Shown: positions 12,826 through 55,207, counted from the first letter of the stretch. The stretch is 64,000 bases of DNA from an uncultured Chloroflexia bacterium (GCA_963789905.1 CAWBMK010000007.1:189955-253954); one strand, 5' to 3'. The notes: generated from the sequence alone by a model not told the origin. Numbers and translations: made by a program.

Positions 12826-13398
12826 ATGACGACACCGCGACGATCGACCCGCCAGCACCCCGGCCAGCCGTCGGTCGACGGCCGTGCCGAGATCGAGCGT
12901 CTCGAGGCCGAGCTCGCCGATGCGAGGCGACAGGGCGAGGAGTTCCTGGCCGCGCTTCAGCGGGAACGAGCCGAGTTCATCAACTACAAGCGCCGGACGA
13001 CAGAGGAGCGCCAGGCAGCGCTCGGGCTCGCCTCGGAATCGCTGCTCCGCAAGGTCCTGACCCTGGCCGACGACTTCGACCGCGCCATCGAGGCTCGCCC
13101 GGAGGAGCTTGCCGATCACGCCTGGGTCGACGGCATCGCCGCCATCGATCGCAAGCTGCGGATCCTCCTCGAGAGCGAGGGCGTCACGCCCATCGAGTCG
13201 ACGCCGGGCACGCCGTTCGATCCCCGCGAGCATGAGGCCGTGGTGAACATCCCGGGCACCGGGCGAGCCGACGGCGAGATCGTCGAAGAGATCATCAGGG
13301 GCTATCGCCTCCGCGACCGCGTCCTGCGGCCCGCCATCGTGGCGGTCGCCGGAGGCGACGAAGAGACAACCACATCCACCGACACCACGAACGACTGA
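12826..13398 (+). CDS. grpE: nucleotide exchange factor GrpE
   Basis: [33 protein letters not shown]. Confidence 0.95.
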
Positions 13399-13415
13399 CA
13401 GGGAGCGGAACAGAC

Positions 13416-15377
13416 ATGGGCAAGATCATCGGCATCGACCTCGGTACCACGAACTCCGTGGTCGCCGTCATGGAGGGCGGCGAGCCGACCGTCATCGCCT
13501 CGGCCGAGGGCGGCCGGACGGTCCCGTCGGTCGTGGCCTTCACGAAGACCGGCGAGCGCCTCGTCGGCCAGCTCGCCAAGCGCCAGGCGATCACGAACCC
13601 GGCCAACACGATCTATTCGATCAAGCGCTTCATGGGCCGTCGTTTCGACGACAGCGAGGCCAAGCGAGCCGGCGAGCACGTTCCCTACAAGGTCGAGAAG
13701 GACCCCAAGTCGGATGGCGTCGTCGTCGTCGCCGATGGAAAGCGGTACACGCCGCCCGAGATCAGCGCGATGATCCTCCAGAAGCTCCGCTCCGACGCCG
13801 AGGCGTATCTCGGCGAGAAGGTGACCGAGGCGGTCATCACCGTCCCGGCCTACTTCGACGACACCCAGCGTCAGGCGACCAAGGACGCCGGGCGGATCGC
13901 CGGTCTCGACGTCAAGCGGATCATCAACGAGCCGACGGCGTCCGCCCTGGCCTACGGGCTCGACAAGAAGAAGGACGAGAAGATCGCCGTCTACGATCTC
14001 GGCGGCGGCACGTTCGACATCAGCATCCTCGAGCTCGGCGACGGCGTGTTCGAGGTCAAAGCCACCAACGGTGATACCCACCTCGGCGGCGACGACTTCG
14101 ATCAGCGGGTCATCGAGTGGCTGCTGGCCGAGTTCAAGAAGGACCAGGGCATCGACCTCTCGAAGGACGCCCAGGCCATGCAGCGCCTCAAGGAGGCGGC
14201 CGAGAAGGCGAAGATCGAGCTGTCCACGACGGCCACGACCGAGATCAACCTGCCTTACATCACGGCCGACGCGTCGGGCCCCAAGCATCTCGTCATCAGC
14301 CTCACCCGGGCGAAGCTCGAGGACCTCGTCTCCGACCTCATCGAGAAGACGAAGGAGCCCGTCCGGAAGGCGCTGAAGGACGCCAGTCTTGCGGCCAAGG
14401 ACATCGACGAGGTCATCCTCGTTGGCGGCCAGACGCGTATGCCGGCCGTCGTCGAGGCGGTCAAGTCCGTCTTCGGCGGAAAGGAGCCACACAAGGGCGT
14501 CAACCCCGACGAGGTCGTCGCGGTCGGCGCGGCCATCCAGGCCGGTGTCCTGGGCGGCGAAGTGAAGGATGTCCTCCTCCTCGACGTGACTCCGCTGTCC
14601 CTTGGGATCGAGACCCTCGGCGGCGTCATGACCCGCCTCATCGAGCGGAACACGACGATCCCGACCTCGAAGTCGCAGACGTTCTCGACCGCCGCCGACA
14701 ATCAGACCCAGGTCGAGATCCACGTCCTCCAGGGCGAGCGCGATTTCGCGACGGACAACAAGACGCTGGGACGGTTCATCCTCGATGGCATCCCGCCGGC
14801 ACCGCGCGGTATCCCCCAGATCGAGGTCGCATTCGACATCGACGCCAACGGGATCCTCGATGTCCGGGCCAAGGACCGGGCAACCGGCAAGGAGCAGCAG
14901 GTCCGCATCACCGCGTCGTCGATGCTGTCCAAGGACGACGTGGACAAGATGGTCAAGGATGCCCAGGAGCATGCCACCGAGGATCGCGAGCGTCGCGAAC
15001 AGGTCGAGCTCCACAACCAGGCCGAACAGCTGACCTACCAGGCCGAGCGGACTCTCCGCGACCTGGGCGACAAGGTCTCGGAGGACGATCGGACGGATGT
15101 CGAGTCCAAGGTGGCTTCGCTGCGCGAGGCACTGAAAGGCACCGACGACGAGGCCGTGAGGTCCGGCGCATCGGTCCTGGCGGAGTCGCTCTCGCGGGTC
15201 TCGACGAAGGCATACGATGCGGCCGCCTCATCGGCAGGCTCATCCGACGGTACCGCTGACGGCACGGACGGTTCGGCCGGGCCCGGCGATGAGTCGCCCT
15301 CAGAGGACGACGGAGCGGCGGGCGAAGGCGCCGCCGAGGGCGAGGAGACGGTCGAGGGCACCTACAAGGAGGTCTGA
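13416..15377 (+). CDS. dnaK: chaperone DnaK
   Basis: [38 protein letters not shown]. Confidence 0.99.
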
Positions 15378-15536: not shown

Positions 15537-16736
15537 TCAGCCAGCGACGATCCGGTCGATGATGTCGCCGCTGGCCGGGTCGCGGAGGATGAGCTTGTGG
15601 CGGCCGTCGGGCAGGATCTCTCGCTTGATCACGACAAGGCCGTCGAGCGTCTCCGGCGTCGATGAGATGCGCGGCGTCGTTCCGCCGCGCCACTCGAACA
15701 AGGTGACCGGCTCCCAGGCCTTGGACTTCGCAGACCGATAGGCGGCGTCCATGATCGCGTTCACGACGTAGCCGTCGTAGAACGTTTCCATCGGGGCACG
15801 GCCGCCTTCCAGGGCATCGAACATGTCGGTGAACATCTCCGTATACCCGAGCTCTGCGATCTCATCACCGACGGGGAACAGCCAGCCGGCGGTCGTCTCC
15901 GCCTTTTCGGCGACATAGCCGCCGCCCCCACCGGCCGTGAAGATCTCGAAGCCGGTGCGCAGGAAGTGGTTGATCCAGATCGTGCCGCCGGTGCCGGCCA
16001 CCTCGTCACGCAGATCCATCCCACCCCGGAACGTCCAGCTGACCTCGAACTGGCCGATGGCGCCGGATTCGAAGCGGATGAGGACGATGGCGTTGTCCTC
16101 GTCGGCGATGGGGTGGACGAGGGTATCGATGACGCCCATGACCTCGACCGGCCGATTTCCCTTGCCGACGAAGTTGCGGATGATCTCGATGCAGTGGCAG
16201 CCGAGGTCGATGATCGCGCCTCCGCCGGTAAGGCGCCCGTCCCAGAACCACGCCGAGTGAGGTCCCGGATGGGTCTCACGCGAGCGCACCCAGGTGACGT
16301 CACCGATCGCACCAGCCTGGACGGAGCGGACCGCCTTGAGCGTCTTGGGCGTGTAGCAGAGATCCTCGAGGTAGCCGGCGAAGACACCCGCCTTCTCGAC
16401 CGACGCGAGCATCCGTCGGGCCTCGTCGGCGTTCCGGCCCAGCGGTTTCGTGCACAGGACGGCCTTGCCCGATCTGGCGACCATGGCCACCACCTCCTCA
16501 TGGAGGTGGTTCGGCAGGCCGACGACGACGATGTCCGTGTCGGGATGCTCGATGGCGGCGGCCAGATCGGTCGTGCTCTCAGGGATGCCCCAGCGCTCAG
16601 TGAATGCCGCCCCGCGCTCCGCGCTGCGCGAATAGACGACACGGACGCGATCGCGACTTCGCTGGGCGTGGATCGTCATCGTGTAGAAGTCGCCGATGAG
16701 CCCGGTGCCGAGCATGGTGACGTTGTGGCCGTTCAT
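15537..16736 (-). CDS. Gfo/Idh/MocA-family oxidoreductase
   Basis: GTGLIG Rossmann fold, [21 protein letters not shown]. Confidence 0.9.
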
Positions 16737-17815
16737 CGGTGGGCTCGCTCCTTCCCAGTGACGAGGTTACGGCCCGCCACGAGCGCCCGCAGCTTCGCCA
16801 GCGCGGCCCACCGGGCGGTCTGGCTGAAGCCGCAATCGGGCACGAGGGTGAGCCGTTCGCCGGGAACGCCAGCGGCGAGGAGGCGATCGGTTCGCTCGGC
16901 CACATCGGTGGGCGTCTCGATGTAGTAGTTCTTCACGTCGATGACGCCGGCGGCCAGGTCCCGGCCGCTGGCCGCGATCTCGCCGGCGATCTCGATCTCG
17001 GCCATCTCCCGGTTCGCGAACTCGAGAACGAGCTCATCGACCGGGAAGTCGAGCATCGTCTCGACGATCGGTCGGTACGTTCGCTTGGCCAGCGGTCGGC
17101 CGAGGTAGTTGCCGAAACACAGGTGAGCAGCCAGACGGACGCGCCCGACGATCGGCTCAACGGCCTCGGAGAAGAGGGCCGCGAAGTTCGCCGGCGCGTC
17201 CGGATGGATGGCCGCCGAGGGCTCATCGAGCTGGATGGATGTCGCGCCTGCGTCCGCCAGGGCCGCCAGCTCGGCGCGGAGGATCGGGACGAACGCCTCG
17301 GCCGCGGCGACGCGGTTGGCGTAGACGTCACCTGCGCCGGTGCGGAGACGGCCCGAGAGCGTGTATGGACCCGGCAGCGTCACCTTCAGGGGTCGATCGG
17401 TTCGCGACCTCGCATAGAGAAACTCGGCCACGACGCCGAGCCCATCTGGCGCGGCGATCCCCTCGGTCACCTCGAACCTGTGCTGCTGGTCGTGTCCGCC
17501 GGGCCCCAGCCGGCGAGGCGAGGCGAGCGGTCTGACGCCCGTCAGGTGGCGGTAGAACTCGGCGGTGAAGAACCCCGCCCGCCGCATCTCGCCATCGGTC
17601 ACGACGTCGATGCCCGCCTCCTCCTGGTCGTGCAGGGCGACGTCGACCGCATCGTCGAGCATCTCAGAGAGATCGTCGGGGCCGAACTCCCCGCGCTCGG
17701 CGGCTCCGATGCCCGAGACGAACCACGATGGCCATGCGTGCGAGCCGACGACGCTCGTGAGGAGGCCATCCGGCCGGTTGGCCGCGGTCGCCGAGAGCGA
17801 CGTGGGATCGGTCAC
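16733..17815 (-). CDS. cobalamin-independent methionine synthase II family (single-barrel MetE-like) zinc enzyme
   Basis: [30 protein letters not shown], zinc-ligand motifs HLCFGN, LEF, PDCG; GTG start at 17815 is tentative. Confidence 0.85.
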
Positions 17816-17852
17816 GAGAACCCTCCACAAGGGATCGAGCGAGCGGTGCCAA

Positions 17853-18707
17853 TCATGGAGCGGAACCGCCCGGGAGACCAGCCTGGCCTCCGCCCGGCGA
17901 CACGACCGACCAGCCTCCATCGATGCCAAGGACCTGGCCGGTTACCGCCCGCGACTCGGCGGAGAGGAAGTAGACGGCCGCGCTGGCCACGTCCTCCGGC
18001 GCCAGCATGGCACCGGCAAGCGGTTGCTTCCGACGGACGTAGGCGAGGGTCGCCTCGTCGGCCGCGGCGCGCTCGGACATCGGCGTCTCGGTCAGGCCCG
18101 GTGCGACCGCATTCACCCGGATGCCGGCCGATGCGTAGTAGGCCGCCATCGTCGTCATGAGCGAGAGGATCGCGCCCTTGGCGGCTGCGTAGGCATGAGT
18201 CGCGAAGAGCTCCGGGACTGGTTCGGTCGCCAGCACGCTGCTCATCAGGAGGATGGAGCCGCGACTGCCGGCCCCGTCCGGCTCCTGGGCCAGCATCCGG
18301 CGCACGACCTCGCCGCAGACGAGCGCCTGGGTCGTGAGGTTGAGACGGAGCGTCGCCTCCCAGGCCTCGGCGGTCATCAGATGCAGAGGCCCGTCGCCGA
18401 AGCGCCGACCGCTGCCGCCGGCCACGGAGAACAGTCCGTCGATCCGACCGAATGTCTCGAGGCAGACATCGACGGCCGCGGTGACGTCGCCTGACTCGGC
18501 AAGATCGGCCGCTCGCCAGGCGGCCGTCCCGCCTTCGGCGGCGATCCGCTCGGCGAGGGCGGCGCAGTGCCCGGGTGTGCGCGAGGTGATGAAGACTCGA
18601 GCGCCTTCGCCGGCGAACATGACGGCCGATGCGGCTGCGATGCCCGTGGAGCCGGTGACGAGGCACACGCGTCCGTCGAGCCGTCCAGTGCGCGATGGTT
18701 CGGTCAT
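17853..18707 (-). CDS. short-chain dehydrogenase/reductase
   Basis: TGSTGIA, catalytic YAAAK, RVNAVAPG, VTGQVLGIDGG. Confidence 0.9.
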   Translation of the reverse strand: MTEPSRTGRLDGRVCLVTGSTGIAAASAVMFAGEGARVFITSRTPGHCAALAERIAAEGGTAAWRAADLAESGDVTAAVDVCLETFGRIDGLFSVAGGSGRRFGDGPLHLMTAEAWEATLRLNLTTQALVCGEVVRRMLAQEPDGAGSRGSILLMSSVLATEPVPELFATHAYAAAKGAILSLMTTMAAYYASAGIRVNAVAPGLTETPMSERAAADEATLAYVRRKQPLAGAMLAPEDVASAAVYFLSAESRAVTGQVLGIDGGWSVVSPGGGQAGLPGGSAP

Positions 18708-18741
18708 CGATCTCCCTGACGCCGGTGTGGCACCGCGATTG

Positions 18742-18770
18742 TTGACGGTCGCCCGCCCGGCTCGTATCTT
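18742..18770 (+). promoter_or_regulatory. promoter of the rightward sugar-catabolism operon
   Basis: TTGACG (18742-18747), 17 nt, TATCTT (18765-18770). Confidence 0.7.
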
Positions 18771-18775
18771 GGCAT

Positions 18776-18806
18776 GGCTGTCTAGACGGCTAGATGGCTA
18801 GACAGC
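18776..18806. promoter_or_regulatory. putative GntR/HutC (DasR/NagR-like) operator array
   Basis: GTCTAGAC palindrome (18780-18787); CTAGA at 18782, 18790 and 18798; perfect inverted repeat GCTGTCTAG/CTAGACAGC; HutC-type regulator in the operon. Confidence 0.7.
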
Positions 18807-18839
18807 TGCGCATCGTCAGCGGAGGCATGGACGTCCATC

Positions 18840-19997
18840 ATGCGGCGGATCAGCGAGATCGGTGCGGCTGTCATCGGTAGTGGTTTCATCGGCACGGTCC
18901 ATGTTGAGGCACTTCGACGGATCGGCGTCAAGGTTCGTGGGCTCTTGGGATCGTCACCGGAGAGGGGGAGCGCCGCAGCAGAGCGCCTCGGCGTCAAGCG
19001 CGCCTATGCGAGCCTCGAGGAGCTGCTGGCCGACGACAAGGTCGAGGTCGTCCACGTCACCTCCCCGAACCACCTCCACTACCCACAGGCGAAAGCGATC
19101 CTGGCCGCCGGCCGCCACGTCGTCTGCGAGAAGCCTCTGGCGTTGACGAGCGCCGAGTCGGCGGAGCTTGTCGCGCTCGCGGCCGAGTCCGGTCGCGTCA
19201 ATGCCGTCAACTTCAATATCCGTTTCTACCCCCTCAACCAGCATCTCCGCGGCGTCGTCCGAGACGGCGGGCTGGGTGACATCCGGCTCATCAGCGGTCG
19301 CTACTTCCAGGACTGGCTGCTCCTGGACACCGACTGGAACTGGCGTCTCGACCCCGAGCTCGGCGGGGCCCTTCGGGCGGTCGGCGATATCGGATCGCAC
19401 TGGCTCGATCTGACGAGCTTCATCAGCGGTCTGCGCGTCGGCGAGGTCATGGCCGAGATGGCCACCTTCATCGAGACACGCCAGCAGCCGGCCGGGCCGG
19501 TCGAGACGTTCTCGACGGAGCGATCCGCCGATACCGTCGCCCGCCGAATCGGGACGGAGGACCTGGCCACGATCCTGCTGCGCTACGAGAACGGCGCCCG
19601 GGGTCTGGTCGCCGTGTCCCAGCTCAGCGCCGGTCGAAAGAACTCGCTGCAATACGAGATCGACGGCTCAGAGGCCGCCGCGAGCTGGGATTCGGAGCAA
19701 CCCGACCAGCTCTGGACCGGCCACCGTGACCGGGCCAATGAGGTCCTCATCCGCAACCCGGCCCTCCTGACCGATCTCGGGAGCGCCGCCGCCGTCCTGC
19801 CGGGCGGTCATGTCGAGGGTTTCGCGGACACGTTCGCCGCTCTCTATCGGGCCGTCTATGCCGATGTCGCCCGTGGCGATCCGGCCGAGCAGCCTGTCTA
19901 TCCAACGTTCGCGGACGGCCACGACAAGATGCTGGTCGGCGACGCGATCGCCGAGAGCGCCCGCGTTGGGCGCTGGACTGCGGTGACCTACCGATGA
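18840..19997 (+). CDS. Gfo/Idh/MocA-family oxidoreductase
   Basis: GSGFIG, SPNHLH, CEKPL, NWRLDP, DIGSH. Confidence 0.92.
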   Translation: MRRISEIGAAVIGSGFIGTVHVEALRRIGVKVRGLLGSSPERGSAAAERLGVKRAYASLEELLADDKVEVVHVTSPNHLHYPQAKAILAAGRHVVCEKPLALTSAESAELVALAAESGRVNAVNFNIRFYPLNQHLRGVVRDGGLGDIRLISGRYFQDWLLLDTDWNWRLDPELGGALRAVGDIGSHWLDLTSFISGLRVGEVMAEMATFIETRQQPAGPVETFSTERSADTVARRIGTEDLATILLRYENGARGLVAVSQLSAGRKNSLQYEIDGSEAAASWDSEQPDQLWTGHRDRANEVLIRNPALLTDLGSAAAVLPGGHVEGFADTFAALYRAVYADVARGDPAEQPVYPTFADGHDKMLVGDAIAESARVGRWTAVTYR

Positions 19998-20022
19998 TCC
20001 GACGATACGAAGGAGAATTCCG

Positions 20023-20937
20023 ATGAGGCTCGGCTTCCTCACCGCCCCGTTCCCCGAGACGCCGTTGATGGATGTCGCCGACTGGGCGGCCGGGAACGGC
20101 TTCGAGGTACTCGAGATCGCCTGCTGGCCACGCTCGAGTGGACCGACCCGCCGCTATGCCGGCACGTCCCATATCGACGTCACCGGGCTCTCGGCTGCGC
20201 AGGGCACCGAGATCGTCGACGAGATCGCCGCCAAGGGCCTCACGATCTCCGCCCTCGGCTACTACCCGAATCCCCTTCATCCCGATCCGGCCCATCGCGA
20301 GATGGTCATCGGTCACCTCAAGCACGTCATGACCGCCGCCCAGGCGATGGGGATCCCGCTCGTCAACACCTTCATGGGCGGCGACAGCTCGAAGTCAACG
20401 GACGAGAACTGGGACGAAGCGCTCCGGGTCTGGCCGGACATCGTGACCTTCGCCCGGGATCAAGGGGTGAAGATCACCATCGAGAACTGCCCCATGATCT
20501 TCAGCCGCGACGAGTGGCCGGCCGGCAACAACATCGCCTGGTCGCCGTACATCTGGCGCCGGATCATCGAGCAGTGGGGCGGCACGATCGGCCTCAACTA
20601 CGACCCCTCCCACCTCGTCTGGCTGATGATCGACCAGCAGCGGTTCATCCGCGAGTTCGGACCGCACATCCTCCACTTCCAGGCCAAGGACCTCGAGATC
20701 GATCGAGACGGCCTCTACGAGCGGGGGACGCTCTCGTCGGGGATCGGCTGGCAGGTTCCCCGCCTGCCCGGCCTCGGCGAGGCGCCCTGGGCGCGGATCT
20801 TTGCAGCCCTCTACCAGGCCGGCTATGCGGGTGACTGCATCATCGAGCACGAGGATCGCCGGTTCGAGGGCACGGACGAGCTGGTAAAGCGCGGCTTCCT
20901 CATCGCCCGCGATGTCCTCCGACCGTACGTGAAGTGA
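20023..20937 (+). CDS. sugar phosphate isomerase/epimerase (xylose-isomerase-like TIM barrel, AP_endonuc_2)
   Basis: IENCPM, NYDPSH, HFQAKD, PGLGE, IEHED. Confidence 0.88.
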   Translation: MRLGFLTAPFPETPLMDVADWAAGNGFEVLEIACWPRSSGPTRRYAGTSHIDVTGLSAAQGTEIVDEIAAKGLTISALGYYPNPLHPDPAHREMVIGHLKHVMTAAQAMGIPLVNTFMGGDSSKSTDENWDEALRVWPDIVTFARDQGVKITIENCPMIFSRDEWPAGNNIAWSPYIWRRIIEQWGGTIGLNYDPSHLVWLMIDQQRFIREFGPHILHFQAKDLEIDRDGLYERGTLSSGIGWQVPRLPGLGEAPWARIFAALYQAGYAGDCIIEHEDRRFEGTDELVKRGFLIARDVLRPYVK

Positions 20938-21686
20938 CGGCGATGTCTCTCTCGATCGACGATCTCACCTACAGCGACGTCGCCAGGACGATCGATCATT
21001 CGCTCCTTCGTCCGGAGCTCGATGACGCCTTCATTGAGGACGGCTGTCGACTGGCGGTCCGTTACGAGGTCGCCTCGGTCTGCCTCCGGCCTGCGGACGT
21101 GATCCGGGCCAGGGCGATCGTCGACGGTACGGGCGTCGCCGTGGGTACGGTCATTGGCTTCCCTCACGGCAGCCATCGGACCGAGACGAAGGTCTTCGAG
21201 GCGACGACGGCGCTCTCCGACGGAGCGACCGAGCTCGATATGGTCATCCAGATCGGGGCCCTCAAGTCCGGTCGGGACGCCGACGTTCGGGCCGACATCG
21301 CGGCGATCGTCGATGTCGCTCATGCACGCGACGCCATCGTCAAGGTCATCCTCGAGAACGCATACCTGACCGACGAGGAGAAGGTGCGCGCCTGCCACCT
21401 GGCCGAGGCGGCCGGGGCCGACTTCGTCAAGACGTCGACTGGATTCGCACCGTCTGGGGCGACGCACGAGGACCTGGCGCTCATGCGCCGGTCGGTCTCG
21501 CCCCACGTCCAGGTCAAAGCCGCCGGCGGCGTCCGAACGCTCGACGCGCTGCTCGCGGTGATGGAGCTCGGCGTCACCCGCGTCGGGGCAACCGCGACCG
21601 CCGCGATCCTCGACGATTTCCGTGCCCGCAAGGCCGGTGGTCGACCCGACCCCGTAGCCGCGACACACGACACGACCGCCTACTAG
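20934..21686 (+). CDS. deoC: deoxyribose-phosphate aldolase (DeoC-like)
   Basis: IDHSLL, VIGFPHG, ELDMV, KVILE, FVKTSTGF (Schiff-base Lys), VKAAGGVR. Confidence 0.88.
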   Translation: MTAMSLSIDDLTYSDVARTIDHSLLRPELDDAFIEDGCRLAVRYEVASVCLRPADVIRARAIVDGTGVAVGTVIGFPHGSHRTETKVFEATTALSDGATELDMVIQIGALKSGRDADVRADIAAIVDVAHARDAIVKVILENAYLTDEEKVRACHLAEAAGADFVKTSTGFAPSGATHEDLALMRRSVSPHVQVKAAGGVRTLDALLAVMELGVTRVGATATAAILDDFRARKAGGRPDPVAATHDTTAY

Positions 21687-21690
21687 GCCG

Positions 21691-22497
21691 GTGACGATGA
21701 CCATCCCCGACGCCCCGGCGCTGGCCTGGATGGGCCAGGCGCGCGCGCTGCTGGAGCGACTCGCCGAGTCACAGGCAGCGGCAATCGAGACAGCCAGCGG
21801 GTGGTGCGCCGAGGCCATCGCTGCCGGGGGCCTCGTGCACCTGTTCGGCACCGGGCACTCGCGGATCCCGGTGGAGGAGATGTTCCCGCGTTACGGGTCC
21901 TATCCGGGATGGAATCCGATCGTCGAGCTGTCGATGACGTTCCACACCCAGGTCGTCGGGGCGAACGGCCAGCGACAGGCGATGTTCATCGAGCGGACGC
22001 CGGGCCTCGCGGAGGTCATCCTCTCGAACTTCTCGTATCGACCGACCGACGTGATGATCGTCTTCTCGGCCAGCGGTCTCTCCACGGTGCCGGTCGAGAT
22101 GGCCCGTGGGGCGCGGCGCCGCGGCCTCCGCACGATCGCCGTGACCTCGGTCGCCCAGTCCCTCGCCAGCGAGCCGCAGGAAGCGGCGGGAGCCCGCCTC
22201 CTCGACGAAGCGGACCTCGTCATCGACCTGTGTACCCCGCCTGCCGACGCCCTATGCGACATCCCGGGACTGGAGACACCGGTTGGTCCGGGATCGACGC
22301 TCGCCGCCGTTGCCGTGGCCAACGCGATCAAGGTCCGCGTCGCCGAGCTGCTGGTCGATCGAGAGGCCATGCCGCCCGTCATCACACGTCCGGTGGTCGT
22401 CGGACCGGAACGCTCCCAAGCCCTTTTCGATGAGGCATATGCGGACCATGCGCGGCGTATCGCCCGCGCCCTCGACCAATCCATCGGAGGTCGCTGA
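21691..22497 (+). CDS. SIS-domain sugar isomerase-like protein
   Basis: LFGTGHS, FSASG, IAVTS, PVGPGST. Confidence 0.8.
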   Translation: MTMTIPDAPALAWMGQARALLERLAESQAAAIETASGWCAEAIAAGGLVHLFGTGHSRIPVEEMFPRYGSYPGWNPIVELSMTFHTQVVGANGQRQAMFIERTPGLAEVILSNFSYRPTDVMIVFSASGLSTVPVEMARGARRRGLRTIAVTSVAQSLASEPQEAAGARLLDEADLVIDLCTPPADALCDIPGLETPVGPGSTLAAVAVANAIKVRVAELLVDREAMPPVITRPVVVGPERSQALFDEAYADHARRIARALDQSIGGR

Positions 22498-22511
22498 CTG
22501 CTGCTGTGGGC

Positions 22512-23459
22512 ATGCCGGCCGGGGGCCTACATCTCGGGCTCGATCTTGGGGCGACGAACCTCAAATGGGCGGTCCTCGAGCGCACACACGACGGCTGGAA
22601 GACCGCGGCGACAGGCCAGACGCAGACGCGCTCGGGGAGCGGTCCGGACAGCATCGTGGCCGAGCTGGCCGAGGTCGGCCTGACTGCCGAACGCGAGGTC
22701 GGGGGCGACGTCGTCTCCATCGGCATCGGCGTTCCGGGACTGTACGATCCGGCGACCGGCGCCACGCGGTTCCTGCCGAATGTGCCCGGTGAGTGGGCCG
22801 GCCGACCGGTCGCCGGGCCCGTCGGGGCCGCGATCGGAGCGCCGGCGGCGCTCATCAACGACGCCCGGGCCTTCACGCTGGCCGAGCTCACCCTGGGTGC
22901 CGGTTCGGACTGCGATTCGATCGTCGCTCTCACGATCGGGACCGGCGTCGGGGGCGGCATCGCCATCGATGGCCAGGTCCTCTTCGGCCACGACGGGACG
23001 GCCGGTGAGATCGGTCACCAGACGATCGAGCCCGATGGCCTGCCATGCACCTGTGGCAATCGCGGCTGCCTCGAGCCATACGCCAGCGCCGCCAGGATCG
23101 CCGAGCTGTGTGGGACGGCGTCGGCCGAGGACGCGGTAGACGCGGCGCATGCCGGTGACGGCAGGGCGCTTCGTGGTCTGGCCGAGGTCGGTCGATGCCT
23201 GGGCATCGGCATCGCCAATCTCATCGTCCTCGTGAACCCGGATCGCATCGTGATCGGCGGTGGCGTCGCCATCGGGGCAGGCGACCTGCTGTTCGAGCCG
23301 ATCCGCACGGAGATCGCCGCGCGGGTGCACGTCACCTCACTGGCCGGGATCGACGTCGTGGCGGCCGAGCTCGGGACCCTTGCCGGGGCGATCGGGGCGG
23401 CCGTGCACGGAGCCCGAACCGTGGCCAAGCTGGAGGCAGGGTCGGATGGCAATCGATGA
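22512..23459 (+). CDS. ROK-family sugar kinase
   Basis: GLDLGATN, INDARA, TIGTGVGGG, GEIGH, CTCGNRGCLE; no HTH. Confidence 0.9.
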   Translation: MPAGGLHLGLDLGATNLKWAVLERTHDGWKTAATGQTQTRSGSGPDSIVAELAEVGLTAEREVGGDVVSIGIGVPGLYDPATGATRFLPNVPGEWAGRPVAGPVGAAIGAPAALINDARAFTLAELTLGAGSDCDSIVALTIGTGVGGGIAIDGQVLFGHDGTAGEIGHQTIEPDGLPCTCGNRGCLEPYASAARIAELCGTASAEDAVDAAHAGDGRALRGLAEVGRCLGIGIANLIVLVNPDRIVIGGGVAIGAGDLLFEPIRTEIAARVHVTSLAGIDVVAAELGTLAGAIGAAVHGARTVAKLEAGSDGNR

Positions 23460-24220
23460 CTGATCCCTACCTCCCGCGCTACCGCGAGATCGAGCAGGCC
23501 CTTCGGATCAGGATCGCAACCCTTCGCCCCGGCGACCCGATCCCTTCCGAAGCCGACCTGGTGGGCGAGTTCGGTGTCAGCAGGATGACGGCGCGGGCCG
23601 CCCTCGGGGTCCTCGCCGACGAGGGCCTGGTCTCGCGGGAGCCCGGCCGCGGGACGTTCGTGGCGGAGCAGCCCCACCACCGGCGGGCCGACAGCCTCGT
23701 CTCCTTCTCGAACGAGATGCGCCGTCAGGGTCGAGCCCCCTCGTCGCGTCTCATCCTCCGCCAGGTGCGCGCGCCGACGACGGAGGAACGGACCGATCTG
23801 GGTCTTAGGACGGGCCAACGCGTCGTGGCCCTGCGCCGGATCCGACTCGCCGACGACAAGGCCATCGCCATCGAGGACGTGACCCTGCCGGAGCGCTGCG
23901 CCGATGTGGTCATGGGGGCGGATCTCGAGAAGGGCTCGCTCCACGAGGCGCTCATCGGCGGGGGATTCGTGTTGGCGCGCGGCTACGCGACGCTGTCCGC
24001 CGAGGCGGCGACGGCCGAGGACGCACGCCTGCTTGGCGTTCGGGCGCGCCATCCCCTGCTCGTCGAGCGGCGAGTGATCCGCGACGACCATGGACGACCG
24101 CTCGAGCGGACGGAGTCCCGCTATCCGGGTGATCGCTACGGGCTCGATGTCGCATTCCAGGTCGAGGCGCCGCGTGAGCGCCCCCTTCGGCGCCCACGCT
24201 CCACACGAGGCGGACGGTGA
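23456..24220 (+). CDS. GntR/HutC-subfamily (UTRA) transcriptional regulator
   Basis: PSEADL, GVSRMTARAAL, GRGTFV, UTRA domain; ATGA coupling. Confidence 0.92.
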   Translation: MTDPYLPRYREIEQALRIRIATLRPGDPIPSEADLVGEFGVSRMTARAALGVLADEGLVSREPGRGTFVAEQPHHRRADSLVSFSNEMRRQGRAPSSRLILRQVRAPTTEERTDLGLRTGQRVVALRRIRLADDKAIAIEDVTLPERCADVVMGADLEKGSLHEALIGGGFVLARGYATLSAEAATAEDARLLGVRARHPLLVERRVIRDDHGRPLERTESRYPGDRYGLDVAFQVEAPRERPLRRPRSTRGGR

Positions 24221-25335
24221 GCGAGATCGTCGTTGGGCGACTCGTCATCGACGACGAGGTCGTTCCAGGTCGTCTCGTGATCGAGGACGGTCGCATCGTT
24301 GCGGTCGAGCCTGATGAAGCCGCAGCTCGAGGGCCATTTGTCGCACCAGGGCTCATCGACCTCCACGTCCACGGCTGGGGCGGGCACGATGCGATGGGCG
24401 GAGGTGGCGCGCTCGACGGGATGGCGCGAGCCCTCCTCCGTCGCGGGGTCACCGCGTTCCTCCCGACGGCGGTCTCGGCCCCGCTGCAATCGCTCCATGC
24501 CTTCGCCGCGCGCGTTCGGCTCTGGATGCAGAGTCCCGCGGCGGATGGCGCCCAGCCGCTGGGGTTCAATCTGGAGGGGCCCTTCCTGGCGTCGGTCCGC
24601 CGTGGCGCCCACGACGCGTCCGCCCTGCGCATCCCGGCTGACGTGCCGGCAGCCGAGGTCGACGCGCTGCTCGAGGCGATGCGGATCATGACGATCGCAC
24701 CGGAGCTGCCGGGCGCCCTCGAGCTGATCGGCCGCCTGGCCTCAGCCGGCGTGTCGCCGTCACTCGGCCACTCGAACGCCTCGCTCGATGAAGCGCGCGC
24801 AGGGTATGCGGCAGGTGCCGTGTCGACGACCCATCTCTTCAACGCCATGAGCGGCCTCGACCACCGTGATCCGGGCCTGGCGGTCGCTGCCCTGACCACC
24901 GATCCGGCGTTCGTCGAGCTCATCGCAGACGGTCACCACGTCCACGAAGCCCTCTGGCCGATCGTCCTCCGGACCAAGCCCGCCGATCGGGTGGTCCTCG
25001 TCAGCGACGCCGTCCACCTGGCCGGCACGGATGTCCGGCGCGGTCGCCTCGGTGGCATCGCTGTCGAGGTTGACGGCAGCCGCTGCGTGATCGCCGGCGA
25101 GGACCGATTGGCCGGATCGCTCATCGCCCTGGACACGGCCGTCCGTAACCTCGTCGCCTCCGGTGTTGCCTTGCCTCGCGCGATCGCTGCCGCGAGCCGC
25201 GATCCGGCCGCGCTCGTCGGCGCGACCGGTCGCGGTCGTCTCGCCGTCGGCCTGCGTGCCGACCTCATCGAGCTCGATGACCAGCTCGTCGTGACCCGGG
25301 TCATGCTCGGCGGGTTCTGGCACGGTACAGCCTGA
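24217..25335 (+). CDS. nagA: N-acetylglucosamine-6-phosphate deacetylase
   Basis: PGLIDLHVHG, LEGPF, TIAPE, GHS, THLFNAM, DGHHV, SDA, LAGS. Confidence 0.92.
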   Translation: MSEIVVGRLVIDDEVVPGRLVIEDGRIVAVEPDEAAARGPFVAPGLIDLHVHGWGGHDAMGGGGALDGMARALLRRGVTAFLPTAVSAPLQSLHAFAARVRLWMQSPAADGAQPLGFNLEGPFLASVRRGAHDASALRIPADVPAAEVDALLEAMRIMTIAPELPGALELIGRLASAGVSPSLGHSNASLDEARAGYAAGAVSTTHLFNAMSGLDHRDPGLAVAALTTDPAFVELIADGHHVHEALWPIVLRTKPADRVVLVSDAVHLAGTDVRRGRLGGIAVEVDGSRCVIAGEDRLAGSLIALDTAVRNLVASGVALPRAIAAASRDPAALVGATGRGRLAVGLRADLIELDDQLVVTRVMLGGFWHGTA

Positions 25336-25489: not shown

Positions 25490-25531
25490 TCCTGGCCGTA
25501 GGGCGGTTGCTGCCGATGTAGGCTCATGGCC

Positions 25532-27232
25532 ATGGCGCTGATCCGCGTTGCGATCGCAGCGGTCGTGGGCCTGCTCACCGCCCTCGGGATCCGCAAGCTG
25601 ATGCGCCCTGGGCGTACGCCGATGCTCGAGATCGAGCCGGATTCCGCGGCCGTACCGGGCTCGAACATGCCGGCACCGGAACCCGCAGTCGAACCCGAGC
25701 CGGCGCCCGAGCCAGCCGCCGAGCCAGCCGCCGAACCCAAGGCCGGGGCGGAGCCGGCAAGGCCGAAGGGACGCCGCCGCAAAGAGCGCCGGCTCGATGG
25801 CGTCAACGACATCCGTCAGTTCTTCCGGACGACGGACAAGCCGGTCTACTTCGTCTCGGCGACCGCCTTCAACCTGCTGGGCATCGACCGCTGGATGCCG
25901 ACCTTCCGCTACATCAACTACTACGACAGCTTCGACGGGCAGCATCCCGCCGTCGTCGTCCCGCGCGAGAGGAGCCCGCGCGCGTTCGAGTCGATCGAGG
26001 AGATCTGCAACTACCTCCTCGCCCACAAGGAGACGCATGATCTCGTGGGCGATCGGGGAGGCCTTGCGACCTTCCTCATGTTCGACGAGGAGACCGAGGT
26101 GCTGGCCAGGGAGGCCGGGCTCGAGGTCGCTTTCCCATCGGCCGCCCTGCGCCATCGGCTCGATTCGAAGATCGAAACGACGAGGCTCGGCAATGACGCC
26201 GGCGTCCCATCGGTCCCCAACGTCCTCGGTCGGGCGGACAGCTACGTCGACCTCGAACGACTTGCCGAGCGCGGCGGACTGGGCACCGACCTCGTCGTCC
26301 AGACCCCCTATGGCGACTCAGGCAAGACGACGTTCTTCATCGACCGGGTAGAGGGCTGGCAGGAGCACGCCGCCGAGATCGTCGGCCAGGACATCAAAGT
26401 CATGAGGCGGATCGTGCCTCGCGAGACGGCCATCGAGGCGGTCGTCACCCGCCACGGCACGCTCGTGGGGCCGCTCATGACCGAGTTGACGGGTTTCCCC
26501 GAGCTGACGCCCTACGGCGGTGGGTGGTGCGGCGACGAAGTCTTCGGTCAGCCGCTCCCGGCCGACATGCGCGCGCTGGCCCGCGAGCGGACCCGGTCGA
26601 TGGGCGAGCGCCTTCGCACAGAGGGCTACCGCGGCTACTTCGAGCTCGACTTCCTGGCCGATACCGCCTCGGGAGAGCTCTACCTCGGCGAGCTGAACCC
26701 TCGGGTGACTGGTGCCTCGCCGATGACCAACGTCTCGTCCCTCGCCTACGGCGACATGCCGCTCTTCCTGTTCCACCTCCTCGAATGGATGGGCGTCGAC
26801 TACGAGCTCGACGTCGACGAGCTCAACGCCCGCTGGGCGGAGCCGGAGAATGTCGATGCCTGGGCACAGTTCATCCTCAAGGACACCGACGACGAAGTCG
26901 AGCTCATCACGTCAGCCCCACGATCGGGCGTCTGGCGGATGGGCGACGATGGCCTCCTGACGTTCGCCCGAAGCGCGACCGACTGGCATGGACTGACCGA
27001 CGAATCGGAGGCCTTCTACCTCCGCATCGCCGAGACGGGCGGATATCGCTATCACGGCGCCGACCTCGGCATCCTGGTCACACGCGGACGGCTCATGACC
27101 GACGACCACGAGCTGACCGATCGAGCACGAGCCTGGATCGACGGCGTCAAGGCCCAGTTCGAGTCAGTTCCGGTCGAGGTCCCGACGTTCGCCATCCCGC
27201 GGCCGGACCCGTTCGGCTTCAAGCTCCTTTAG
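25532..27232 (+). CDS. ATP-grasp (biotin-carboxylase-like) protein with N-terminal membrane anchor and Pro/Glu linker
   Basis: DSKIETTRL, QTPYGDSGKTTF, GYFELDFL, GELNPRVTG; hydrophobic N-terminus then EPAPEPAAEPAAEP. Confidence 0.8.
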   Translation: MALIRVAIAAVVGLLTALGIRKLMRPGRTPMLEIEPDSAAVPGSNMPAPEPAVEPEPAPEPAAEPAAEPKAGAEPARPKGRRRKERRLDGVNDIRQFFRTTDKPVYFVSATAFNLLGIDRWMPTFRYINYYDSFDGQHPAVVVPRERSPRAFESIEEICNYLLAHKETHDLVGDRGGLATFLMFDEETEVLAREAGLEVAFPSAALRHRLDSKIETTRLGNDAGVPSVPNVLGRADSYVDLERLAERGGLGTDLVVQTPYGDSGKTTFFIDRVEGWQEHAAEIVGQDIKVMRRIVPRETAIEAVVTRHGTLVGPLMTELTGFPELTPYGGGWCGDEVFGQPLPADMRALARERTRSMGERLRTEGYRGYFELDFLADTASGELYLGELNPRVTGASPMTNVSSLAYGDMPLFLFHLLEWMGVDYELDVDELNARWAEPENVDAWAQFILKDTDDEVELITSAPRSGVWRMGDDGLLTFARSATDWHGLTDESEAFYLRIAETGGYRYHGADLGILVTRGRLMTDDHELTDRARAWIDGVKAQFESVPVEVPTFAIPRPDPFGFKLL

Positions 27233-53930: not shown

Positions 53931-55207
53931 CCTCTGCGCCCACCGCGTTGCCCGCCCACGACCTCACCGATCTCGGCCTGGCGGACGAGGGCACCCGGCG
54001 CATCGAATGGGCCGAGCGCGAGATGCCGGTGCTGCGTCTCATCCGCGAGCGCTTCGAGCGCGAGCGCCCCCTGGACGGCGTCCGGGTCGCCGCCTGCCTT
54101 CACGTCACGACTGAGACTGCGAATCTCGTCCGAACCCTGGTGGCCGGTGGAGCCGACGTGGTCGTGGCGGCCTCGAACCCCCTCTCGACACAGGACGATG
54201 TGGCGGCCGCGCTCGTCGCCCGCTATGGCATCGCGACGTATGCCCGCCGGGGCGAGGACCGCGACACGTACTACGCCCACCTCAACGCCGTGGCCGACAC
54301 CCATCCGATGCTGACGATGGACGACGGCTGCGATCTCGTCTCGCTCCTCCACAGCGAGCGACCCGACCAGGTCGGCGAGGTCTGGGCGGGGACCGAGGAG
54401 ACGACGACAGGCGTCGTTCGTCTCCGGGCAATGGCCGCCGACGGCGCCCTGCGTTTCCCGGTCATCGCCGTCAACGAGGCCCAGACGAAGCACTTCTTCG
54501 ACAACAGATACGGGACCGGCCAGTCGACGGTCGACGGGATCCTGCGGGCGACGAACATCCTCCTCGCCGGACGGCACGTTGTCGTCGCGGGTTACGGCTG
54601 GGTCGGTCGGGGCATCGCCTCGCGGATGGCGGGCATGGGCTCGCACGTCGCCATCGTCGAGGTCGATCCGGTTCGCGCGCTCGAGGCGCTCATGGACGGG
54701 TATGCGGTCATGACCGCCGCTGACGCTGCTCCGTGGGGCGAGCTGTTCGTCACCGCGACCGGCAATCTGAACGTCTTCCGGCGCGAACATTTCGCGGCGA
54801 TGCGTGACGGCGCGATCATGGCCAACAGTGGCCACTTCGATTCAGAGCTTGACCTCGTAGCCCTGCGGGAGATGGCCGAGGGCCACGTCCGCGAAGTCCG
54901 CACCAACGTCGTCGAGTACGACATCGGCGGCAAGCGGATCAACGTCATCGCCGAGGGACGCCTCGTCAATCTCGGGGCGGCCGAGGGCCACCCGGCGGCG
55001 GTGATGGACATGAGCTTCGCCAATCAGGCCCTGTCTGCCGAGTACGTCGCCCGCGAGCACGCCAGTCTCGAGAACCTCGTCTATGTCGTGCCCGAGGCGA
55101 TCGATCGCGAGGTCGCCCGGCTCAAGCTCGCCGCGCTGGGCATCGAGCTCGAGGGGATGACCGCCGAGCAGGCTGCCTACGTAGCATCCTGGCGGCACGG
55201 GACGTAG
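53927..55207 (+). CDS. ahcY: adenosylhomocysteinase
   Basis: [44 protein letters not shown]. Confidence 0.97.

Follow-up and report, generated by a model that had tools for sequence, protein, structure and literature searches.

Besides methionine synthases, the fold of MetE includes one other known member, epoxyalkane:coenzyme M (CoM) transferase. The accessible text of Price et al. 2021 (PMC7857596) describes four core families of the fold, all of them known or predicted methionine synthases, and the two that have been characterized both use methylcobalamin in vitro; the word "sugar" occurs 0 times in the main text of that paper, as far as it is accessible. The subject here is a single-barrel protein of this fold, referred to below as the MetE-like protein, which is encoded among sugar genes at positions 15537-25335 of a 64-kb stretch of contig C7 from an uncultured Chloroflexia bacterium. 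This whole stretch, with a G+C content (GC) of about 0.69, is called the window; the source genome (2.83 Mb, 94.7% complete) has as its nearest relatives Chloroflexota metagenome-assembled genomes labelled Candidatus Limnocylindrales. Judged by its sequence and gene context, the protein appears to belong to a new clade within the core MetE fold, one defined by its context in sugar clusters, and it probably does a job not yet described. A literature search, conducted largely without subscription journals, returned no paper linking a MetE-like enzyme to sugar clusters.

For the active site of MetE, the accessible text of Pejchal and Ludwig (PMC539065) names His618, Cys620, Glu642 and Cys704 as zinc ligands, Ser411, Glu462 and Asp577 as homocysteine ligands in the Thermotoga maritima enzyme, and Glu583, Trp539 and Lys104 of the other barrel as pterin contacts. 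The MetE-like protein shares with two-barrel MetE the catalytic barrel and its zinc and homocysteine sites, but it has no N-terminal barrel, pterin glutamate or DMV motif. Its zinc ligands, listed in an earlier reading of the locus from sequence only as an intact His/Cys/Glu/Cys motif, are indeed in place as H231, C233, E265 and C328 (His-x-Cys, Glu, Cys), with E265 aligned to Glu642 and C328 to Cys704 of T. maritima MetE. The homocysteine ligands are kept as S25 (recognized by a GS motif), E76 (aligned with Glu462) and D197 (in a DEP motif), while Ile203 occupies the position of the pterin ligand Glu583 and G81-F82-F83 that of the DMV motif. Among 27 aligned family representatives, which span 30-78% identity, S25, E76, D197 and H231 were each found in 24, C233 and C328 in 25, and E265 in all 27. 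As the zinc and homocysteine ligands are kept and the folate determinants are gone, the protein looks like a competent zinc/amino-acid-thiol enzyme that would be unable to use methyl-folate.

Superfamily membership is evident from the PF01717 score (82.7 bits against a gathering threshold of 21) and from an AF2 model (pLDDT 91.8), for which Foldseek gave TM scores of 0.80 to 3rpd and 0.75 to T. maritima MetE. Among solved structures its best match is 3rpd, a single-barrel enzyme (E 4e-23). With 3rpd and the core synthases (MesA-D/core-MetE) the protein has in common the fold, the four zinc ligands, the homocysteine ligands, a length of ~350 aa and the lack of a folate barrel; however, it is only 26% identical to 3rpd and less than 34% identical to the plasmid-borne MesD and haloarchaeal enzymes, and it falls below the cut-off of every curated model. 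The model for MetE proper (TIGR01371) gave 39 bits against 930, and those for core methionine synthases gave 180 against 406 (NF003317), 111 against 392 (NF006589), 66 against 258 (NF002119) and 44 against 399 (NF002272). Relatives in the plasmid collection were under 34% identity only, and matches in the ESM Atlas were generic "methionine synthase" clusters only. The genomic setting differs as well, since core synthases are found beside MesX or corrinoid-protein genes, whereas the MetE-like gene lies in sugar operons of a genome that also encodes MetH. MesX (PF08908) was seen in none of the annotated loci and had no match in the source genome in a search whose control also matched in no genome; in the plasmid reference, MesX lies directly upstream of MesD.

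The gene neighbourhood was compared across 80 genome loci with MetE-like relatives of 64-80% identity, whose genes received their labels from tblastn searches with a set of 21 reference proteins, a match needing no less than 40% identity and 50% coverage. The partners found were a phosphotriesterase (PTE)-family hydrolase (63 of the 80 loci), a short-chain dehydrogenase/reductase (SDR; 54), the Gfo/Idh/MocA-family proteins GFO_L (45) and GFO_R (42), an AP_endonuc_2 protein (41), a ROK regulator (36), a SIS_2 protein (35), a CUT2 binding protein (31), DeoC (29), 2-keto-3-deoxy-6-phosphogluconate (KDPG) aldolase (24), a PF12831 FAD oxidoreductase (20) and NagA (4). The gene directly upstream of the MetE-like gene encodes the PTE in 59 of these loci and the one directly downstream encodes GFO_L in 39. 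Where at least 6 kb was present on both sides, sugar genes were never missing (0/53 loci without them). A metagenome scan seeded with distant representatives added 80 more loci, and relatives of at least about 49% identity, on contigs with a GC of 0.51-0.71, had the same sugar partners in other gene orders: SIS_2, SDR, FAD oxidoreductase, GFO_L-like proteins, ROK, FGGY and PfkB kinases, PTE, KDPG aldolase, GntR/UTRA regulators and CUT2 transporters. Recurrence with sugar genes, the check proposed in the sequence-only reading, thus holds in genomes and metagenome contigs alike. In two unrelated loci a Peptidase_M24 (creatinase/prolidase-type) gene adjoins the sugar cluster that contains the MetE-like gene (L083:13992-15176 and L128:10981-12120, both on the minus strand), a neighbour that may point to a substrate with an amino-acid or amide linkage.

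In a quick maximum-likelihood tree, the sugar-linked relatives form one supported clade. Its 97 rows were the protein of the window, proteins from 11 of the 80 loci that span the identity range, stop-free metagenome hits no shorter than 300 residues, and two references, a MesD and a haloarchaeal split-MetE catalytic half. The window protein fell within a set of 27 rows (SH-aLRT 96), with 22 in sugar context, 5 too short to judge and 0 in another context, and the sugar-context label required 7 changes on the tree against a mean of 23.9 after shuffling. The clade is abundant in soil metagenomes. Among 8000 candidates scored, 7107 database proteins matched at E up to 1e-10, a number that includes relatives outside sugar context; the best 120 listed were 77-100% identical. 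More distant metagenome relatives occur with Liv-type ABC transporters, CoA ligases and acyl-CoA dehydrogenase. Such contexts, with Peripla_BP_6 Liv-type ABC components, AMP-binding CoA ligases and acyl-CoA dehydrogenase, were seen for relatives of 42-48% identity at L130:1986-8719, L152:3901-16468 and L118:7980-10381, and once (L152) a PF12831 FAD oxidoreductase lies beside a MetE-like gene in this non-sugar setting. These relatives suggest a wider set of non-housekeeping core-MetE-like enzymes. They often occur in pairs, for which a split MetE was considered and rejected, as both copies are full-length, 5-8 kb apart, and in Liv-type ABC/CoA-ligase contexts.

A housekeeping role in methionine synthesis appears unlikely. 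A full MetH (1658 bits) is encoded on the same contig, some 109 kb upstream, and an Rfam scan of the 64-kb window returned no match, including to cobalamin or SAM riboswitches. Among 101 genomes sampled across the class, a tally that includes one unpublished genome (G067) with a distant paralogue only, orthologues of at least 70% identity were found in 6, one of them partial. At the family level the orthologue is present in 6 of 28 genomes and MetH in 18 of 28; MetH accompanies the orthologue in four of the six, G008 and G098 having given no MetH match. Since six of the 28 family genomes have neither, the two genes do not complement each other. The sequence-only reading had staked itself on the gene recurring with sugar genes and on its not being an ordinary core methionine synthase outside the control of the local regulator; given the recurrence and the improbability of a core synthase, nothing that would overturn it on either count was found.

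For the locus itself, ten tightly packed genes at 15537-25335 form two divergent operons with a 132-bp spacer between them, and the gene families, the operon layout and the shared operator region described earlier from sequence alone were all recovered with Pfam and NCBIfam profiles and from repeats in the spacer. The features, with family assignment by profile match, are as follows.

15537..16736 (-): Gfo/Idh/MocA-family protein GFO_L, 399 aa (PF01408/PF22725/PF02894)
16733..17815 (-): MetE-like single-barrel zinc protein, 360 aa, GTG start (PF01717, Meth_synt_2, score as above)
17853..18707 (-): SDR-family oxidoreductase, 284 aa, first gene of the leftward operon (PF13561, 166 bits)
18708..18839 (no strand): divergent control region common to both operons, with promoter-like site and operator
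18840..19997 (+): Gfo/Idh/MocA-family protein GFO_R, 385 aa (Pfam)
20023..20937 (+): AP_endonuc_2 protein, a xylose-isomerase-like TIM barrel of sugar isomerase/dehydratase type (PF01261, 102.6 bits)
20934..21686 (+): DeoC, deoxyribose-phosphate aldolase (TIGR00126, 223 bits, cut-off 117.3)
21691..22497 (+): SIS_2 phosphosugar-binding protein, NagS/UPF0309 relative (PF13580, 142 bits; NF002805, 257 bits)
22506..23459 (+): ROK-family sugar kinase, 317 aa, without DNA-binding extension (PF00480, 180.8 bits)
23456..24220 (+): GntR/HutC-type regulator, winged helix-turn-helix and UTRA effector domain (PF00392 and PF07702)
24217..25335 (+): NagA-like amidohydrolase, N-acetylhexosamine-6-phosphate deacetylase type (TIGR00221, 222.4 bits, cut-off 225.65)

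The Meth_synt_2 open reading frame (ORF) spans 16733-17929 (-), and the real start of the gene is placed at 17815 because the called protein is 360 aa. Four junctions are 4-nt overlaps (16733-16736, 20934-20937, 23456-23459 and 24217-24220); the first joins the stop of the MetE-like gene to the start of GFO_L, so that the MetE-like gene is mid-operon and translationally coupled to a Gfo gene. GC at third codon positions (GC3) is 0.81-0.90 for nine of the genes, the GntR ORF having been dropped by the GC3-based caller for overlap. The cluster is flanked by dnaK (13416-15377) on one side and by a biotin-carboxylase-like gene on the other. The latter (25526-27232, +) scores 740 bits with NCBIfam NF005096 "biotin carboxylase" (cut-off 684); its product had no Pfam match at E up to 0.001 and weak matches to TonB models (E about 2e-4) over residues 33-107. 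Antisense to dnaK (+), a 570-aa ORF at 13302-15014 (-) matches PF10712, "NAD-specific glutamate dehydrogenase", with 524 bits; the DnaK gene that it overlaps is certain (1014 bits), so this ORF appears to be the well-known shadow frame opposite dnaK and not a gene.

The comparison with relatives indicates that the locus joins two sugar modules that are inherited separately. Module A comprises GFO_L and GFO_R-AP_endonuc_2-DeoC-SIS_2; in relatives it continues with a CUT2 monosaccharide ABC transporter and is controlled by a ROK regulator. In five genomes it occurs alone as GFO_L and GFO_R-AP_endonuc_2-DeoC-SIS_2-CUT2, with the ROK regulator in two and a third Gfo gene in four. Module B, which is the native home of the MetE-like gene, has in relatives the order GntR/UTRA-SIS_2-SDR-FAD oxidoreductase (PF12831)-ROK kinase-PTE lactonase-MetE-like-KDPG aldolase, sometimes with a NagA-like amidohydrolase, and this arrangement is also present in divergent genome loci and metagenome contigs. 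For instance, in genome G038 the MetE-like gene lies 1.3 Mb from module A in its own cluster, GntR-SIS_2-SDR-FAD oxidoreductase-ROK-PTE-MetE-like (L190), which also has a second CUT2 transporter and a KDPG aldolase. Orthologues of GFO_L (77-83% identity) are present in 16 of the 28 family genomes, compared with the 6 that have the MetE-like orthologue, and in genomes G059, G086 and G041 an SDR-FAD oxidoreductase-PTE block directly abuts GFO_L with no MetE-like gene between. The window retains the SDR, MetE-like, ROK, GntR and NagA genes of module B; of the constant partners of the MetE-like gene (PTE lactonase, SDR, PF12831 FAD oxidoreductase and KDPG aldolase) it has the SDR only, the FAD oxidoreductase being absent from the window cluster.

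This separability bears on the pathway first proposed for the locus, in which the MetE-like protein and DeoC acted together. The DeoC/AP_endonuc_2/Gfo block occurs without a MetE-like gene in all 8 family genomes, out of 10 of this kind, whose loci gave context, and the MetE-like gene occurs without the block in 16 of 53 loci, which makes a single pathway joining the two doubtful. The amino-sugar assignment fares better in part: NagA-like, HutC-type GntR, ROK and SIS genes recur with the MetE-like gene in several lineages, but NagA is near it in only 4 of the 80 loci, and the amino-sugar link of the gene is therefore partial. No glycosidase, NagB or transporter gene lies inside the cluster, as had been noted before, and a search of the whole 94.7%-complete genome for NagB (TIGR00502) found none. 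CUT2 orthologues (binding protein, fused ATPase and two permeases; 55%, 76% and 63% identity to the cluster-attached transporter of relatives) are located ~55 kb downstream, outside the window, at G000 C7:268549-273411 (L091:10550-15412). This outlying transporter adjoins a GcvT-like gene and a creatininase-family gene.

Among the neighbouring enzymes, DeoC exceeds the cut-off of its model (TIGR00126). The NagA model is missed marginally, for which reason the amidohydrolase is best called NagA-like, and the ROK kinase scores 171.6 bits with a ROK glucokinase subfamily model, below its cut-off. GFO_L is matched best by IolG (126.5 bits against a cut-off of 355) and levoglucosan dehydrogenase (115 bits), both far below cut-off, and the AP_endonuc_2 protein has weak matches to IolE and to PDB 2zds and 8ro4. 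With the 3-keto-sugar pathways for levoglucosan, C-glycosides and inositol, module A shares its two or three Gfo proteins, AP_endonuc_2 and CUT2. GFO_R is related to levoglucosan and scyllo-inositol dehydrogenases (solved relatives PDB 6a3f and 5ya8), but it is far below the levoglucosan dehydrogenase cut-off (164.6 bits against 650), and those pathways involve neither DeoC nor SIS_2. A canonical myo-inositol cluster is present elsewhere in the genome (G000 C1:1745734-1761731), with IolD (822 bits) and IolB (243 bits) above cut-off and with Gfo paralogues and AP_endonuc_2 nearby. The best solved relatives of the PTE partner are 3msr/3ovg and 3pnz, which we take to belong to MS53_0025 and Lmo2620, respectively. 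MS53_0025 hydrolyses D-xylono- and L-arabino-1,4-lactone-5-phosphate according to the accessible part of a review.

The SIS_2 protein resembles the N-acetylglucosamine-6-phosphate dehydratase NagS (SCO4393; PDB 9eol, E 1.2e-27), which is paired with NagA in Streptomyces (PMC12680351), and the window likewise pairs SIS_2/UPF0309 with a NagA-like protein, together with a ROK kinase and a HutC-type regulator. Of the residues that NagS needs, the four essential ones, H53, R64, E94 and D179, are kept (as H56, R67, E101 and D186), along with the phosphate serines. However, the Streptomyces gene lies beside dmdR1 whereas the SIS_2 gene of the window is in a catabolic operon, and two important residues differ (S91 is replaced by M98, and N228 by V235). 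Three NagS homologues of ~26-36% identity, none of them from Streptomycetaceae, showed little or no activity with N-acetylglucosamine-6-phosphate (PMC12680351). Overall, the neighbouring genes suggest phosphorylated sugars, sugar lactones and 2-keto-3-deoxy acids, with a leaning towards amino sugars in some lineages.

For the control region, a promoter-like site at 18742-18770 (+) is directly followed by a triple-repeat palindromic operator at 18777-18807. A 13-nt unit is repeated three times in the spacer with 8-nt spacing, and a perfect 9-nt inverted repeat is formed by 18777-18785 and 18798-18806. The operator core octamer, GTCTAGAC, has 3 occurrences in the whole 2.83-Mb genome; a regulon could not be built from it, as the only two other sites are unrelated-looking. 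The regulator combines the GntR winged helix-turn-helix with a UTRA domain, and the palindromic triple repeat stands in the divergent spacer, as in HutC/DasR-type systems; the operator presumably resembles the DasR/NagR boxes. As far as can be told from these elements, this is a catabolic locus under a predicted HutC/GntR-type repressor. GntR-linked relatives of the cluster carry different operators.

As to the function of the MetE-like protein, we tentatively propose an accessory homocysteine S-methyl or S-alkyl transferase acting on a sugar-derived donor, a reading that is possible and to be held with some reserve. Zinc would activate an amino-acid thiol, most simply L-homocysteine, and a methyl or another alkyl group would pass to this thiol from a phosphorylated, oxidized sugar or sugar-acid intermediate supplied by the neighbouring kinase, SIS_2 protein, dehydrogenases and lactonase. 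The donor would thus be this intermediate and not folate or corrinoid; the product would be methionine or a thioether, and the sugar skeleton would be freed for aldolase cleavage. The simplest candidate substrate would be an N- or O-methylated (amino)sugar. An accessory, substituent-removing step fits the distribution of the gene, as it is optional within otherwise intact clusters. Several points weigh against the proposal. No gene indicates a methylated or thio-substituted sugar, no methyl-donor-specific residue could be identified, and a stoichiometric demand for homocysteine would limit flux through a growth substrate. The window genome has no cluster-type PTE (only one of 26% identity) and no PF01081 aldolase, so that the window copy either functions with fewer partners or is being lost. 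The partner labels rest on the tblastn thresholds, with Pfam spot checks on 11 loci only, and the tree comes from a quick search only. Moreover, the order SDR-PTE-MetE-like-KDPG aldolase mimics a dehydrogenase-lactonase-dehydratase-aldolase series. Two other substrates were considered and set aside. S-ribosylhomocysteine/methylthioribose was dropped as the leading idea because AhcY is present, LuxS is absent and MtnN is below cut-off, which leaves no endogenous S-ribosylhomocysteine, although an exogenous source is possible; a gene for this S-adenosylhomocysteine hydrolase lies in the window at 53963-55201 (+) (PF05221, two matched stretches in one 493-aa frame). Demethylation of a methyl-inositol feeding the iol pathway does not fit NagA, SIS_2, PTE and KDPG aldolase, and methyl-inositol was kept as a possible methyl donor.

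The strongest rival to a transferase, though rather unlikely, makes the MetE-like protein the Edd/DgaE-type step of an oxidative, NagB-independent amino-sugar route. After the action of the ROK kinase and NagA, a hexosamine-6-phosphate would be oxidized to its lactone by the SDR or the FAD enzyme, and the PTE lactonase would open the lactone to a 2-amino-2-deoxy-aldonate-6-phosphate. This product is an alpha-amino acid that could be bound by the amino-acid ligands of the MetE-like protein, where zinc as a Lewis acid would eliminate water and ammonia to give KDPG for the KDPG aldolase. The gene order SDR-(FAD oxidoreductase)-PTE-MetE-like-KDPG aldolase would then equal the reaction order, the relatives of the PTE include a phospho-lactone hydrolase, and both the recurrence of NagA-like, HutC-type GntR and ROK genes and the lack of NagB would be accounted for. 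This rival is also favoured, at the expense of the transferase, by the absence of any conventional sugar-acid dehydratase (IlvD/Edd, enolase-superfamily or UxuA-type) from the Pfam-annotated loci. Set against this, SDR-FAD oxidoreductase-PTE blocks persist in G059, G086 and G041 without the MetE-like gene, which is odd for a core step; the PTE and aldolase missing from the window genome would be needed; the SIS_2 partner, with its NagS dehydratase residues, could itself dehydrate; and D-glucosaminate has the D configuration at C2, in contrast to the L-homocysteine for which the site is made. We know of no member of the MetE-like fold that acts as a lyase, which also counts against it. Conversion of glucosaminate-6-phosphate to KDPG, which then enters the Entner-Doudoroff pathway, has a precedent in the DGL reaction (PMC9529869) and in a predicted haloarchaeal route (PMC12343721), according to the accessible text of both, and by analogy its sequel of aldolase cleavage would match the dehydrogenase, lactonase and KDPG aldolase of module B. 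As no homologue of the pyridoxal-phosphate (PLP)-dependent DgaE was seen in the annotated loci, the zinc TIM barrel would be the candidate for this step, in the window without an aldolase to follow it. That a methionine-synthase barrel was repurposed in this way as a non-PLP, zinc-dependent amino-aldonate-6-phosphate ammonia-lyase/dehydratase is unlikely; if true, the lyase would complete an undescribed oxidative, Entner-Doudoroff-like amino-sugar route of kinase, deacetylase, dehydrogenase, PTE lactonase, MetE-like lyase and KDPG aldolase.

It is quite improbable that the protein performs thiol-carrier chemistry like that of epoxyalkane:CoM transferase, with a zinc-thiolate added to, or eliminated from, an enone, an epoxide/anhydro sugar or a 3-deoxyosone made by SIS_2, Gfo or AP_endonuc_2 enzymes, and with the SDR and the FAD enzyme then processing the thioether as in the epoxide carboxylase system. 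The co-occurring trio of MetE-like protein, SDR and FAD oxidoreductase parallels that of epoxyalkane:CoM transferase, hydroxypropyl-CoM dehydrogenases and the FAD-dependent 2-ketopropyl-CoM oxidoreductase/carboxylase (2-KPCC). PF12831 moreover accompanies a MetE-like gene in the non-sugar context of L152, and reactive enamine/imine products would be expected from a SIS_2 enzyme of NagS type. However, the conserved ligands for the alpha-amino and carboxyl groups of homocysteine are ill-suited to a thiol that is not an amino acid, PF12831 is not the disulfide-reductase family of 2-KPCC, and the lack of an endogenous source of S-ribosylhomocysteine counts here too. An ordinary folate-independent core methionine synthase, using methyl-corrinoid or another donor as a backup to MetH and merely lying beside sugar genes, is likewise very unlikely. 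The intact zinc and homocysteine residues, the annotation of close relatives as methionine synthase in the sources, and G008 and G098, two of the six orthologue-bearing family genomes, in which MetH was not matched, would all be explained. Yet the scores are far below every curated model, the gene stays with sugar genes even where loci are rearranged or contigs differ widely in GC, the gene is inside an operon behind a HutC-type operator, the window has none of the riboswitches named above, six family genomes dispense with both enzymes, and no corrinoid-protein gene was seen in the annotated loci.

A clade of the core MetE fold that is fixed in sugar-phosphate catabolic clusters would point to either a new class of methyl or alkyl donor, with methionine made from a sugar substituent, or a new reaction for the barrel. 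The MetE-like clade also gives an entry to the orphan families that travel with it, namely the PTE "phosphotriesterase homology" lactonases, the PF12831 FAD oxidoreductases and the NagS homologues from outside Streptomyces.

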